DNA of 64,000 nucleotides from Escherichia coli (GCF_051903065.1 NZ_CP178438.1), one strand, 5' to 3'; shown: positions 21,501-27,500, numbered from the stretch's first letter. Numbers are program-made.

Positions 21501-24500
21501 GAAGGCGACGCTGACTATCTGGCAGGGCGTCATCCCGCTGCGTTATGTCACAGGCGTGGTGGCGGGCTTTGGCATGCAGGAGAATAACGGCTGGCAGATG
21601 CGTTATCACCTGCGTATTGAGCCGCCGTTATGGCGGTGCGGGCTGCGGCAGAACTTCCGTATCTTCCAGCAGCAGGATATCCGGACGATATCGGCCACGT
21701 TACTGAATGAGAACGGCGTCACGGAGTGGACGCCGCTGTTTTATGAAGACCATCCGGCGCGGGAGTTCTGTGTCCAGTACGGAGAGAGCGACCTGGCGTT
21801 TCTGGCGCGGCTGTGGGCGGAGGAGGGGATTTTCTTCTTTGAGCGGTTTGCGGCGGACAGCCCGGAGCAGAAGCTGACGCTGTGCGACGATGTGGCGGGG
21901 CTGTCACAGGCGGGAGAGCTTCCGTTTAACCCGGACACATCGGCAGGAGCGGAGACGGAGTGTCTCAGTATGTTCCGTTATGAGGCGCATGTCCGCCCGT
22001 CGTCGGTGCAGAGTCAGGATTACACGTTTAAGGTGCCGGACTGGCCGGGGATATACGAACAGCAGGGTGAGAGGCTGAACGGACAGCACGCGCAGTACGA
22101 GATATTTGATTATCCGGGAAGGTTCAAGGATGAGCAGCACGGCAAGGATTTCACGCTGTATCAGATGGACAGCCTGCGCAGTGATGCGGAAAAGGCCACA
22201 GGGCAGAGTAATTCACCGAAGCTGTGGCCGGGAACGCGGTTTACGCTGACGGGGCATCCGCAGAAGATGCTGAACCGTGAATGGCAGGTGGTACAGAGCA
22301 TACTGTCAGGAAGCCAGCCGCAGGCGTTGCACGGCAGCCAGGGGAGAGGAACCACACTGGGCAATCAGTTAGAGGTGATACCGGCAGACCGGACGTGGCG
22401 TCCACGGCTGCAAAGCAAACCGAAGGTGGACGGGCCACAGAGCGCCATTGTCACCGGGCCTGCGGGAGAGGAAATCTTCTGCGATGAACATGGCCGGGTA
22501 CGGGTGAAGTTCCACTGGGACCGTTATCACGGGATGACGGAGGCGAGTTCATGCTGGGTGCGTGTATCGCAGGCGTGGGCGGGGCCGGGGTTCGGCAATC
22601 TGGCGATACCGCGTGTGGGTCAGGAGGTGATAGTGGACTTTCTGAACGGCGACCCGGACCAGCCCATTGTGACGGGACGCACATACCATGAAGACAACCG
22701 TTCGCCGGGCGACCTGCCGGGAACGAAGACACAAATGACCATCCGGTCGAAGACCTATAAAGGAAGCGGATTTAACGAACTGCGCTTCGAGGACGCCACC
22801 AGTAATGAGCAGGTGTATATCCATGCGCAGAAGAACATGGATACGGAGGTGCTCAACGACCGGACAACGGATGTGAAACATGACCATACGGAAACCATCG
22901 GTAACGACCAGAAGATAACGGTGGTGAAGGGTCAGACGGTTCAGGTCGGTACAAAAAAAGAGGGGGGCCACGACCAGAGTATCACGGTGGAGAACGACCG
23001 GCGTATCACGGTACGTAATGACCAGACTCTGAAGGTGACGAATGACCGGACGGTGAGCGTGAGTCACGATGACGGTCTGTACGTCAGAAACGACCGTAAA
23101 GTGACGGTGGAAGGGAAGCAGGAGCATAAGACGACGGGGAACCATATCAGTCTGGTGGAGGGGAAACACAGCCTGGTGGTGAAGGGGGACCTGGCGGAGA
23201 AGGTGAGTGGCGCGCTGGGGATAAAAGTGGACGGGGATATCGTGCTGGAGAGCAGCAGCCGGATAAGCCTGAAGGTGGGTGGCTCGTTTATCGTCATTCA
23301 GCCGGGCGGAGTGGATATAGTGGGGCCGAAGATAAATCTTAATGGTGGGGGGAGTCCGGGGACACCGGTACCGACACTGCAACCCACTGTCCTGAACACT
23401 TTAGTCACTAATGATACGGATAGTAATACTGATGATGATATCGGTAATGATGAGACCAGAGTGAAGTTCATGTTCTCGTAGTGGGATAATCATTCAGATA
23501 AAGATAACGGAAGACGGTAGTAATAATAATACAATAATACTGTGATTTTCTGCTTTCTAAGCAGAGATGCTCTGTGAATGAATAATTCATACTCGTTACA
23601 TGTTTTATAATCTTAATAAGGACTATTGATAATGATAATCAGCCCTCCAATATTGCATGCGCATATAGACACTGAAAAAGACTCTGACTGGGTAAACAGA
23701 ATGATGTCTGTTGATCCAGAAAGAAATTTCCCAATGAATAGCGGTCGTTCTTGGCATGGTGGAGTTCATTTGAACGGCAATCTGTCAGAGACTGTTAGGT
23801 GTATTGCCGATGGGAAGGTTATTTCAATACGCCAGCCAGAACCAGCGGAAAATACAGTTCCTCCGTTAAATTATAACGGAGTTACGGATAAAGGCTATGT
23901 TCTGATAAAACATGAAACAGAAATCGGTAGTGGAGAAGAGGGTAAAATCGTCTATTACTCATTATATATGCACCTGAGAAGCATTGACAGTAATGTGCAG
24001 CCGGGAAACACGCTATACCGGAAAGAACCGGTTGGTGCAGCAGGGATGGTGGACGGACAGAACGCCTTTCATTTTCAGATTTTTTGTGATGATGAAAACA
24101 TTCAGAAAATCACAGGAAGAATATCACCGGAAACAGACCTGAATAAAGATGGACGAACTGATGTGGTTTACGGTGATAGTCATTTTTATCTCCCTGCCGG
24201 AACACCGATTTATGGGGACATGCCGGAAGAAAACTCGCTTGCGAACAACAGTCCGGTACAAAGAACCAGCGTGCCATTGTATGTCACAATGAGTTTTGAT
24301 AAAGGCAATTGTACGATGGTGACGCGTCAGCAGCATGAAGTGCTGAGTGATACCTATACTGAAGTAGGTTCTCCCTTGATTAATGCTGATGGTAAGGATT
24401 ATGAATACAATCTCTATTCCTACGCGCTGCAACTCTATCCGAAAAGCCCAAGTGCCGGTTATGAGATGCTGCGTTTTGGTCGGGTTGTTAATACAGAATA

Positions 24501-27500
24501 TGAAGAATTAGTCCCGGCGGATGCGCCGCTGTGGCGAACAATCAATACGCCACAGGGTAAAGGCGTTGTTAACTTAGGGGCGAGAGATATCAGGGTTTAC
24601 AGCGACGGTGATTTTCCACACTGGACAGGGTGGAAACTGGTGAACGATGATGCGGACACCAACAGCCAGTGCAATTCACCAACAATCCTGTGTACAACCC
24701 GCAATGACCTAAGTCGGATGATTTGTCATTTTCCGCTAGAATGGGACAGCACCACCGTGGAATCACGGTTTGAGTGGCTGAAATCACCCAATGACGTATT
24801 GAGTAAGCCGATGACAGAGCCTGACTTGGATTTGCTGATAGAACACTGTAAGGCGCTTTGTTTGGTAGATAATCCGTTACCTGCCAGGCGTGTATGGCAT
24901 TTTGATCCCAGGCAGTTTATTGCACATTTCAGGAAATGTGGGTGGTTAGGAGAAAATGATATTATAAGTGTGGTAAGACGTTATCAAAATGCTTATCCCA
25001 TGACATCAGAACTTACAAGACCATTAAGTAAAGACACTCTAATTGAGCGGATTACTAGCCAAGGACAAAATAGCAGTGGTGAGGTGATAAGACCTGCAGG
25101 GTTGAAAAATGAACTGTCAAAGTCACTAAGGAAGTACTTAATTACAACCCCATTGCGGATTGCGCATTATTTCGGTCAGATGGCGAGAGAAACAGGCAGA
25201 TTTGCGTCTTTTATAGAGAATGGTGATTCGAGTTATTTTGATATGTATGAGCCAGGAACAGAACAGGGACTTAAGCTTGGAAATAATGTTGTTGGTGATG
25301 GTGCAAGATTTAAAGGCAGAGGTACCATACATCTAACTGGTCGTGAGAATTATAGAAATTATAGAAATTATGGAAAGTATAGAAATCCGTCAGATGATGA
25401 TTTTTTTACTACAGAACCCAATAACCAACTCCCAGTTGAAAATGCCTATTTTTCTTGCGATGCCGGGGGATACTTTTGGGCAAGTAAGCAAAAATACATA
25501 ATGGTAAGCCATCGATTGACACCTAGTGGTAGTTTAGGCGTTAATTATTGGGCGGATAAAGGATGTAGTTTGTCAGATGCCAGAGAAGTTACACGGCGAA
25601 TAAACCCAGCAGCAGATGGCTTCGATTTAGTGCGTTGGCCAGCATTTGAGCATTCTTGGTATGTATTGAATGATGAAATAACACCTCCACTTAATTACAT
25701 AAGGATTGTTTAAAACAATGAATTTTAAAAAAACAATAATCATTTCGGTAGGTTTGATATTTATTTCATTCTCTTTTGTGGCAAAGTGCTCTCAACTCAA
25801 AAATTTGAATAATTACTCAGTGATGCTTTGTGGAAAAGTGTCAAATAATATCCTGGATGATATTGGTGGTTATAAAGAAAGAGATAAAAAATCCGAAATG
25901 GTAGATTTACTTATATTAATTAGTAATGACGAGCCTAACGGTGTTTCTGAGACCAAAGTGATTTCTAATGGTAAAATATATTTTAAGGGGGAAAGTACGA
26001 TGAACTTGGATGCCTCATTCATTATGACAATAAATGGTGGAGTTCATACTGACACTGTCACTTATATATCAAAGAAGAATAAAATTATCGGGGGCTACTT
26101 TTATAATAATGAGAGTAAAACTGATAAGCTTAAGGAAGTATATATCTCAAACACAGGAACTGTATATCGGTAATGACTCCAACTTATTGATAGTGTTTTA
26201 TGTTCAGATAATGCCCGATGACTTTGTCATGCAGCTCCACCGATTTTGAGAACGACAGCGACTTCCGTCCCAGCCGTGCCAGGTGCTGCCTCAGATTCAG
26301 GTTATGCCGCTCAATTCGCTGCGTATATCGCTTGCTGATTACGTGCAGCTTTCCCTTCAGGCGGGATTCATACAGCGGCCAGCCATCCGTCATCCATATC
26401 ACCACGTCAAAGGGTGACAGCAGGCTCATAAGACGCCCCAGCGTCGCCATAGTGCGTTCACCGAATACGTGCGCAACAACCGTCTTCCGGAGCCTGTCAT
26501 ACGCGTAAAACAGCCAGCGCTGGCGCGATTTAGCCCCGACATAGCCCCACTGTTCGTCCATTTCCGCGCAGACGATGACGTCACTGCCCGGCTGTATGCG
26601 CGAGGTTACCGACTGCGGCCTGAGTTTTTTAAGTGACGTAAAATCGTGTTGAGGCCAACGCCCATAATGCGGGCTGTTGCCCGGCATCCAACGCCATTCA
26701 TGGCCATATCAATGATTTTCTGGTGCGTACCGGGTTGAGAAGCGGTGTAAGTGAACTGCAGTTGCCATGTTTTACGGCAGTGAGAGCAGAGATAGCGCTG
26801 ATGTCCGGCGGTGCTTTTGCCGTTACGCACCACCCCGTCAGTAGCTGAACAGGAGGGACAGCTGATAGAAACAGAAGCCACTGGAGCACCTCAAAAACAC
26901 CATCATACACTAAATCAGTAAGTTGGCAGCATCACCCATATTAGGAATCTGGGAAAGAACAAGGTGCGCCGCTTTTTTTGTACTAAATAATTCGCATTTT
27001 AGTCACGGCAGAGAAGAAATCCGTCTTCATATTGTTTGCGATGTTCCTGATGAACTTATTGATTTCACGTTTGAATGGAAAGGGCTGAAGAAATTATGCG
27101 TGGCAGTCTCCTTTCGGTCCATAATAGCAGAACAAAAGAAAGAGCCAGAAATGACGGTCAGATATTATATCAGTTCTGCTGATTTAACCGCAGAGAAGTT
27201 CGCCACAGCAATCCGAAACCACTGGCACGTGGAGAATAAGCTGCACTGGCGTCTGGACGTGGTAATGAATGAAGACGACTGCAAAATAAGAAGAGGAAAT
27301 GCAGCAGAATTATTTTCAGGGATACGGCACATTGCTATTAATATTTTGACGAATGATAAGGTATTCAAGGCAGGGTTAAGACGTAAGATGCGAAAAGCAG
27401 CCATGGACAGAAACTACCTGGCGTCAGTCCTTGCGGGGAGAAGGCTTTCGTAATCTTGCCCTGGCATTATTGTCGTAAAAACGCATTACCGGACACACGA

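Follow-up and report, generated by a model that had tools for sequence, protein, structure and literature searches.

A type VI secretion cargo protein of Escherichia coli predicted to join a WHIX-like, M23-derived module to a GH19/lysozyme-like toxin domain

Introduction

Does a secreted protein that looks like two peptidoglycan enzymes joined end to end use both halves as toxins, or does one half serve another purpose? This question is raised by a gene at positions 23632 to 25713 (plus strand) of a 64,000-nucleotide (nt) stretch of Escherichia coli DNA (GCF_051903065.1, NZ_CP178438.1), called the window here. The gene encodes a 693-amino-acid (aa) protein made up of a WHIX-like N-terminal module, a linker, and a GH19 lysozyme-like toxin domain. 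A first-pass annotation had described the product as an effector of uncommon architecture, in which M23-like and GH19/lysozyme-like enzymes on a single polypeptide could cut both peptide cross-links and glycan strands. We reach a different view of the N-terminal half: the protein is probably an antibacterial cargo toxin of a type VI secretion system (T6SS) in the WHIX/TseP superfamily, from a clade that was missed by the published census. We place the probability of this reading, with its mechanistic steps taken as a whole, at roughly 0.78.

WHIX is a bipartite domain of ~450 to 650 aa found in 4,434 T6SS effectors, named for its WHxxxH motif (“WH type sIX”) and sufficient for T6SS secretion (Fridman et al., PLoS Biol 2025, PMC12135965). 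Based on pull-down and truncation data, it is proposed to cap the C-terminal tail of VgrG. For example, the WHIX domain of Awe1 binds the C-terminal tail of its VgrG, with a cavity predicted to hold the K..KVSFSGR residues of VgrG4, and removing 14 C-terminal VgrG4 residues ends both binding and delivery of Awe1; expressed alone, the Awe1 WHIX domain is non-toxic in the periplasm (PMC12135965). A C-terminal peptidoglycan-targeting domain is present in 96.5% of WHIX proteins, most commonly of a “chitinase-like” type (2,242 proteins), and in the 162 proteins of subclass II a genuine M23 toxin precedes WHIX as an additional domain and has a separate immunity gene upstream (PMC12135965).

The original study of TseP is cited in the WHIX paper among WHIX proteins shown to be secreted by a T6SS (PMC12135965). 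The N-domain of TseP, an effector of Aeromonas dhakensis, binds VgrG2 and is structurally required for T6SS assembly (Wang et al., eLife 2025, PMC11893102). TseP-N is a Zn-dependent amidase (N-acetylmuramic acid [MurNAc]-L-Ala) whose activity relies on H19 and H23, which form an HxxxH pair, as well as on other residues; those tested were H19, H23, H109, H339, H359, and E539. TseP-N, AHA_1849-N, and PSPTO_5204-N all release stem peptides from peptidoglycan in a Zn-dependent manner. TseP-C is a lysozyme with E654 and E663 and a solved structure (PDB 8XCL), and C-domain mutations alone abolish TseP toxicity in vivo (PMC11893102).

Results

Predicted folds and family of the effector

The gene call (open reading frame [ORF] 23626/23632 to 25713, with the RefSeq start at the ATG at 23632) draws on the ORF, Pfam, RefSeq, a homologue alignment, and an AlphaFold2 (AF2) model. 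Its RefSeq product, WP_226156858.1, is labelled “M23 family metallopeptidase,” and E. coli 23CRST027 encodes an identical protein (100%); the effector allele is present at 100% identity in three complete E. coli genomes. Pfam returned a weak Peptidase_M23 match over aa 42 to 155 (E = 3.3e-4), while NCBIfam and PADLOC scans of the effector and of the candidate immunity protein returned no matches, and a promoter and terminator scan of 20400 to 26400 found nothing above chance. The AF2 model, built from the homologue alignment, has a mean predicted local distance difference test (pLDDT) score of 93.4 and a predicted TM score (pTM) of 0.93, and it agrees with both an M23-like and a GH19-like fold. 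As a prediction, therefore, the fold combination proposed in the first-pass annotation holds; the fold mismatch it had named as grounds for dropping the idea was not seen, and every string it had quoted is present in the effector (WHGGVHL, aa 41 to 47; GYVLIKHETEIG, aa 88 to 99; IVYYSLYMHL, aa 106 to 115; ARETG, aa 518 to 522).

All statements of invariance in this work are based on an alignment of 78 homologues with 30 to 69% identity. Columns without variation include W41, H42, G44, H46, H94, and H114 in the N-module, and E520, E529, G562, R563, G564, and T569 toward the C terminus; H147 is conserved in at least 90%. The motifs and conserved residues far exceed chance expectation. WHxxxH occurs within the first 200 aa of 249 of the 268 relatives retrieved. 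Domain searches detect the two halves unevenly, with Pfam M23 found in 28 of the 78 homologues at E ≤ 1e-3 (67 at E ≤ 0.1) and Pfam GH19 (PF00182) in 4 (18 at E ≤ 0.1).

A word-indexed search returned 916 family matches, and an exhaustive HMMER search returned 3,346 representatives at E ≤ 1e-3, with 278 clusters (50% identity) at E < 1e-30. Members occur in Salmonella, Enterobacter, Yersinia, Photorhabdus, Buttiauxella, Klebsiella, Chromobacterium, Burkholderiales, and Pseudomonas. Contrary to what had been supposed, such an architecture is not rare: besides these 278 clusters there are the 2,242 chitinase-like WHIX proteins, and the TseP family is a characterized pairing of amidase and lysozyme. 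In databases, family members go by names such as “hydroxyethylthiazole kinase,” “kinase,” “putative membrane protein,” “pyocin R lytic enzyme,” “predicted chitinase,” and “M23 family metallopeptidase”; the kinase labels seem to have spread as misannotations.

An M23-derived core with a remodelled metal site

The M23-peptidase-like beta core (aa ~30 to 155; 23719 to 24096, plus strand) corresponds to WHIX region 1 and the second half of M23 in one contiguous block, with a beta-core fold of the LytM type. Profile alignment to solved M23 enzymes places “sWHgGvH” over “aPHNGTD” of ShyA, “YMHL” over “YLHL,” and “kiHfe” over “HLHYE.” Three M23 positions are retained: the first Zn-ligand His (H42), the catalytic His of “HL” (H114), and the last Zn-ligand His (H147). 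Two others are not. The HxxxD zinc motif reads H42-x3-H46, with an invariant His in place of Asp, and the HxH motif reads A145-F146-H147, leaving the second His alone, since the first (catalytic) His is Ala here and “k/n” in the family profile. Compared with LytM, lysostaphin, and ShyA, the core also has an extra invariant His (H94), and it is embedded in a 435-aa module of a predicted secreted toxin. The rest of this WHIX-like module (aa 156 to 435; 24097 to 24936, plus strand) is beta-rich and helical and closes with a conserved VWHFDPRQF.

The altered zinc motif lies at 23752 to 23769 on the plus strand (W41 H42 G43 G44 V45 H46), aligned with PHNGTD of ShyA. The first-pass annotation had regarded WHGGVHL as a variant or degenerate HxxxD. 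Asp is indeed replaced by His, but the replacement is not accidental: with W41, H42, G44, and H46 invariant, WHGGVHL is the WHxxxH hallmark that gives the WHIX T6SS loading domain its name.

Could the N-module nevertheless be a genuine M23 enzyme that cuts cross-links alongside the GH19 domain? The potential metal ligands H42, H46, and H147 and the “YxHL” residue H114 are all kept and all invariant or nearly so, and double-toxin T6SS effectors with a genuine M23 domain do exist, at the N terminus of Awe1 and in the 162 WHIX subclass II proteins. Judged from the alignment, however, classical M23 endopeptidase chemistry is unlikely, because every family member departs from the canonical active site at two positions: no homologue has the Asp of HxxxD, where His stands instead, and all have lost the first His of HxH. 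In subclass II, the genuine M23 is an additional N-terminal domain accompanied by an upstream immunity gene, and neither is found here, where VgrG is directly upstream. The Awe1 WHIX domain alone is harmless in the periplasm, and the activity measured for TseP-N is that of an amidase releasing tri- and tetrapeptides, not of an endopeptidase. We consider a cross-link-cutting N-module quite improbable. LytM relatives without catalytic activity are known (EnvC, NlpD, DipM, and SpoIIQ), and, like EnvC and SpoIIQ, the effector may have traded catalysis for protein binding.

The start of the effector, MIISPPxL (aa 1 to 8; 23632 to 23655), is nearly invariant in the family (M1, I3, S4, P5, P6, and L8 at 90% or more) and is modelled at a pLDDT of ~95, which is unusual for an N terminus. 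These residues might fill the M23-like groove or belong to a loading signal.

A lysozyme-like C-terminal domain

The GH19/lysozyme-like toxin domain occupies aa ~491 to 693 (25102 to 25710, plus strand). In a search of PDB sequences, aa 495 to 620 matched GH19-type phage endolysins (9ms7; E = 6.6e-9) and 8XCL, the crystal structure of the TseP C-domain (E = 5.7e-5). A candidate catalytic Glu had been proposed in ARETG, and the alignment bears this out: E520 (25189 to 25191) is invariant, and nine residues further on is E529 (25216 to 25218), also invariant, giving a putative catalytic pair (25189 to 25218, plus strand) with the same spacing as the TseP pair E654/E663. The domain thus combines a predicted GH19 fold and two putative catalytic Glu residues with the features of the TseP family, an 8XCL-type lysozyme-like C-domain with such a pair.

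The first-pass annotation had also reported both GH19 signature blocks. Loosely, this is correct, as the endolysin-type ...AxETG... and GRG..(Q/H)LTG blocks are both present, but the strict PROSITE GH19 patterns PS00773 and PS00774 and Pfam Glyco_hydro_19 (PF00182) do not match the effector. By sequence, the domain is best described as a divergent endolysin-type GH19-like domain.

Because phage GH19 endolysins are the nearest solved structures to the C-domain, and some homologues are annotated “Pyocin R, lytic enzyme,” the gene might be read as a phage or tailocin lytic enzyme (an endolysin or a “pyocin R lytic enzyme”) and not as a T6SS effector. No phage genes lie nearby, however, and the 435-aa N-module with its WHIX motif is not of endolysin type; a VgrG or VgrG fragment is directly upstream in 8 of 10 homologue loci, and an ORF of periplasmic immunity type follows the effector. 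We reject a phage endolysin or tailocin origin on gene context and give it next to no probability.

Homology to WHIX

To compare the family with WHIX, the founder sequence (Vibrio alginolyticus WP_005373349.1) was rebuilt from the AlphaFold3 file in the supplement of the WHIX paper. In addition to the WHxxxH motif (W41-H42-x3-H46), homology to WHIX region 1 (founder aa 31 to 126) is clear, with an hhalign probability of 98.4 to 98.6 and E values of 1e-14 to 9e-16. BLASTP alone aligns aa 33 to 115 of the effector with founder aa 33 to 120 (27% identity; E = 4e-8), and hhalign of the 78-sequence profile against the full founder spans the N-module and the GH19 domain in 566 columns (probability, 99.5%; E = 1e-22). 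The genetic context is also that of WHIX proteins, in which spike genes are adjacent, the C-terminal domain is of a peptidoglycan-targeting type, and a signal-type immunity ORF follows.

The effector resembles WHIX subclass I proteins, which have a chitinase-like/GH19 C terminus, in several ways. Both have the N-terminal WHxxxH and ...YSLYMHL block and the terminal ...WH(F/Y)xP. The order of parts is the same, with a WHIX-like module, a Cys-containing linker, and a GH19-like domain with AxE(S/T) and GRG..(Q/H)(I/L)T blocks, and in both the gene comes after vgrG and before a signal-peptide-like immunity gene and encodes a peptidoglycan-targeting toxin (predicted here). Unlike the Vibrio founder, which has about 145 aa between “YMHL” and “VHIE” (“VSAGEDIGYMG...VHIEMF”), the effector has a contiguous M23-like core, and because of this Pfam still detects M23 in the E. 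coli clade. A second difference from the founder is that aa 156 to 355, between the core and the terminal helices, have no clear counterpart.

The effector is not of subclass II, because it lacks an N-terminal extension and an upstream immunity gene. In Awe1, a “double-blade” member of that subclass, the extra genuine M23 toxin domain precedes WHIX, and two immunity proteins are needed, one encoded upstream and one downstream; here nothing extends before WHxxxH, and the gene directly upstream is vgrG.

Conserved gene order and VgrG tails

Gene neighbourhoods were inspected for ten homologues. Directly upstream, eight of them have a gene for VgrG or for a fragment of it, several times within a main T6SS cluster with Hcp, ClpV, or TssB/C; the remaining two lie on short metagenome contigs, where the upstream ORF could not be assigned. 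Directly downstream, every one of the ten has a small ORF whose N terminus is signal-like or lipoprotein-like. The order VgrG, effector, small ORF is found in Buttiauxella, Yersinia (within the main Hcp-ClpV-VgrG cluster), Salmonella (Hcp-VgrG), Enterobacter (TssB/C-VgrG), and Chromobacterium. Signal-like N termini were judged by hydrophobicity.

The upstream VgrG proteins also share their last residues. In Enterobacterales the tails are RVKFMFS (window), PVRFVFS (Buttiauxella), IKRWLFS (Yersinia), PLKFLFS (Salmonella), PVKFFFS (a second E. coli paralogue), and SYFLFS (Enterobacter), with a common pattern of ...[KR]ΦxΦFS-COOH. Tails in other lineages end in PFSE (Chromobacterium) and PFSL (a metagenome contig, L013). 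A VgrG found at this E. coli locus with another cargo ends in ...NCNEHQ and lacks the ΦFS motif.

Docking was modelled as a single chain of the effector, a (GGS)10 linker, and the last 25 VgrG residues. The linker has a pLDDT of 31 to 37, and the linker and acidic part of the tail stay below 50, compared with about 64 for the final eight residues (TRVKFMFS). This rise is compatible with docking at the level of a model.

The cassette in the window

The effector is the third gene of a four-gene cassette (PAAR, VgrG, effector, and small ORF) between yncG and pptA, in an orphan vgrG island of the rhsE type. The first gene of this auxiliary T6SS cassette encodes a 94-aa PAAR protein (21031 to 21315, plus strand; annotated at an identical locus as WP_001127493.1, “type VI secretion system PAAR protein”). 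Next is the gene for the 715-aa VgrG spike protein (21334 to 23481, plus strand; NCBIfam TIGR03361, E = 5.6e-179; TIGR01646, E = 9.7e-125), the presumed carrier of the effector, whose C-terminal tail RVKFMFS (23458 to 23478, plus strand) is the proposed docking peptide for the WHIX-like module, with its tail motif shared by the VgrGs upstream of homologues. The first-pass annotation had called the third gene product an effector, and the PAAR and VgrG genes upstream and the small signal-peptide-like ORF downstream agree with that call.

The fourth gene, the candidate immunity gene (25718 to 26173, plus strand; sequence MNFKKTIIISVGLIFISFSFVAKC...), encodes 151 aa here with a hydrophobic, signal-like N terminus. 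It shares 29% identity (E = 2e-13) with the ORF that follows the Buttiauxella homologue. Its 3′ end has been lost to an insertion sequence, IS1 (26169 to 26936, minus strand; end approximate), recognized by the inverted repeat GGTAATGACTCC from 26169 and an InsB ORF at 26184 to 26687 and annotated as “IS1A family transposase”; an ISAs1 fragment also lies 3′ of the cassette. The window protein ends in ...TGTVYR*, and the full-length allele of strain A16 (167 aa; WP_001009642.1) ends in ...TGTVYHINIESVSNDKCLDKFK*.

Guanine-plus-cytosine (GC) content steps down along the cassette (21334 to 26173), from 0.57 in vgrG through 0.45 (N-module) and 0.39 (GH19 part) to 0.31 (immunity gene). This staircase suggests a mosaic, horizontally acquired module shaped by modular recombination. 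Among 5,426 complete E. coli genomes, the full effector gene occurs in only 19, and 134 retain just a 3′ remnant, made up of the last ~234 nt of the effector and part or all of the immunity gene, within the stretch that spans 25480 to 26173 in the window; these include Nissle 1917, ABU 83972, and ATCC 25922. In EC28 the yncG-pptA locus has a different set of VgrG and cargo, and the remnant lies 3′ of it. The remnants look like what usually stays behind when a cassette is displaced and its immunity gene is orphaned.

Elsewhere in the window, at ~38894 to 41477, the annotation of an identical genome lists espR1, a type III secretion system effector with leucine-rich repeats, and leucine-rich repeat gene fragments, all unrelated to the effector. 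GC content is low (0.36 to 0.37) over 38001 to 42000, the espR1 stretch.

Discussion

A proposed route from spike to peptidoglycan

Published relatives suggest how the parts of this cassette would work together. The ~435-aa N-module is built round an M23-derived beta core whose zinc-site residues are remodelled to H42/H46/H147, with H94 and H114. By analogy with the Awe1/VgrG4 and TseP/VgrG2 experiments, and given the co-occurrence of VgrG tails, it would cap the ...RVKFMFS tail of the upstream VgrG, and the effector would ride the PAAR-VgrG spike. In the periplasm of a neighbour, the GH19 domain, with E520/E529 as general acid/base pair, would cleave glycan strands and lyse the cell, as expected from its predicted fold, its residues, and the biochemistry of TseP-C. 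The small periplasmic protein encoded at 25718 to 26173 would be the cognate immunity protein. The cassette itself would have been acquired horizontally and would recombine as a module at the yncG-pptA (rhsE-type) island.

Several observations weigh against this proposal, some concerning family membership and others the state of the locus. WHIX region 2 (founder aa 271 to 476) is matched only weakly: comparison with a profile of 23 Vibrio WHIX sequences aligned aa 356 to 428 with 376 to 476 (E = 8e-4 to 3e-3; probability, 11 to 24%) and a second piece, aa 144 to 163, with founder 297 to 319 (E = 0.03 to 0.04), and the family profile against a single-sequence WHIX region 2 was not significant in hhalign. 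The two pieces are collinear but weak; the matched stretches “ICxFPxEW”/“IVKHxxxW” and “VWHFxP”/“LWHYWP” are collinear as well. WP_226156858, WP_000587243, WP_155110000, and WP_063143512 are all absent from the complete tree file of Fig. 1B of the WHIX paper, in which six of six example accessions and the founder were found as a control. Judged indirectly, from this absence, the clade would fall outside the authors' RPS-BLAST thresholds (E ≤ 1e-6; at least 70% coverage). Because region 2 is marginal and the accessions are absent from the census, we describe the clade as a divergent, compact sister clade of WHIX/TseP that the census does not catalogue and that probably functions in the same way. 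The likeness to the tested TseP residues is drawn at the level of motif, and the modelled rise in tail confidence is moderate and was read from the confidence scores of a single, uncontrolled fusion model.

At the locus, the annotation of the identical sequence (±20 kb) lists no T6SS core genes within the window. IS1 replaces the last 17 codons of the immunity gene with one Arg codon and a stop, yielding 151 aa instead of 167. The effector carries an in-frame 9-bp tandem duplication (NYR, aa 573 to 575; 25348 to 25356) relative to the commoner 690-aa E. coli allele WP_000587243.1, located in the GH19 domain directly past the invariant GRG..LTG block; T374A and V693L are the further differences between the two alleles. 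In sister strains A16 and ES5, vgrG is frameshifted (707 to 2853 of the locus in both), and in ES5 the effector is frameshifted too (3001 to 5074 of the locus). The frameshifts indicate ongoing cassette decay in parts of the species. Because of the cut immunity gene, the NYR duplication, and the sister-strain frameshifts, function in the window strain is not assured.

These lesions, and the small share of genomes that keep the full gene (19 of 5,426, against 134 with a 3′ remnant only), could also mean that the effector is an intact-looking but dead passenger of an eroding orphan vgrG island. PAAR, VgrG, and effector are all intact ORFs in the window, though, and every invariant residue is kept. 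Three genomes have effector genes identical at every position (100%), and the model remains confident near the duplication, with a block pLDDT of 81 to 83. A silent or decaying cassette is, in our estimation, unlikely.

Loader, amidase, or both?

The T6SS cargo reading leaves room for a second activity in the N-module, which may also be a Zn-dependent MurNAc-L-Ala amidase, as TseP-N is. The resemblance to TseP extends to putative VgrG-dependent cargo status, an N-domain with HxxxH and further His residues (TseP-N was modelled on the M23 peptidase 3SLU), a single downstream immunity gene, and a stepwise GC drop from VgrG to N-domain to C-domain. TseP has an EF-hand motif and is larger, with about 845 aa in all and ~600 aa in the N-domain, compared with 693 aa and ~435 aa here. 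Identity is low, at 17% to 8XCL over the C-domain and about 12% for family members in the published TseP-N Foldseek list. None of 15 UniProt accessions of the clade appeared in the TseP Foldseek supplements; the sole overlap, found later, is A0A843SHU8, which ranks 49 in our AFDB50 search (E = 1.3e-48) and is number 266 in the TseP-N list, where its neighbours go by “hydroxyethylthiazole kinase” and “M23 family metallopeptidase,” wrong names typical for this clade. A search for TseP with an 8XCL fragment gave one unrelated 119-aa match, and the TseP residue pattern was not found in any retrieved protein.

In a dual enzyme of the TseP type, the N-module would be both the VgrG loader and a Zn2+-dependent N-acetylmuramoyl-L-alanine amidase that aids killing, with one immunity protein covering both domains. 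Zn-dependent stem peptide release by TseP-N, AHA_1849-N, and PSPTO_5204-N, lowered by mutation of H19/H23 and of other His residues, favours this, as do the HxxxH pair and three further His residues, invariant or nearly so, that point to a conserved metal site. A family member is present among the structural neighbours of TseP-N, and there is one candidate immunity gene only, as in TseP/TsiP. On the other hand, identity to the canonical WHIX/TseP-N clades is only about 12 to 27% and the middle region differs, TseP toxicity in vivo is lost by C-domain mutations alone, the Awe1 WHIX domain does not intoxicate the periplasm, and the invariant His residues could equally serve VgrG-tail binding or folding. 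The dual enzyme is a real possibility, although we would bet against it. The conserved His cluster may bind Zn for amidase catalysis, as in TseP-N, for binding the VgrG tail, or for both.

A more speculative extension, which we regard as doubtful, is that the substrate groove of M23, together with the metal site as remodelled here (H42/H46/H147, with H94 and H114), may now clamp the free ...ΦFS-COOH tail of VgrG much as a peptidase grips its product. Loading would then be a peptidase-substrate interaction, and release of the tail in the periplasm of the prey would expose the site, perhaps as an amidase; the clade, with at least 278 clusters at 50% identity, would form a large and compact WHIX branch outside the census, one whose ancestry Pfam can still see.

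Significance for E. coli and the WHIX superfamily

No paper characterizing this effector was found in the literature. Klebsiella Tke (LysM-SLT-M23) and Salmonella SARI_02625 were checked as possible prior descriptions and are different proteins; a related “M23 peptidase” candidate next to VgrG in Enterobacter bugandensis (“M23 + DUF3289”) has been mentioned in silico (PMC10763514). As with Awe1 and Tse4 of Acinetobacter baumannii, a bifunctional transglycosylase and endopeptidase, a single T6SS polypeptide may here be able to attack both glycan and peptide of peptidoglycan, although the domains of Tse4 are different. The domain logic, delivery route, and target are already established, and no new principle is involved.

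If the T6SS cargo reading is correct, an E. coli/Enterobacterales clade joins the WHIX/TseP peptidoglycan toxins, the labels “M23 metallopeptidase,” “hydroxyethylthiazole kinase,” and “kinase” carried by this clade in databases are wrong, and the WHIX census under-counts the superfamily. The contiguous, compact M23 core would make the clade a convenient model for deciding whether WHIX is a VgrG-loading chassis only or also a Zn-dependent amidase, a matter on which the two 2025 papers differ in emphasis and point apart, because TseP-N shows amidase activity in vitro, whereas no toxicity was seen for the Awe1 WHIX domain in the periplasm. The presence of remnants in many E. coli, including Nissle 1917, would give the cassette relevance to competition among gut strains.

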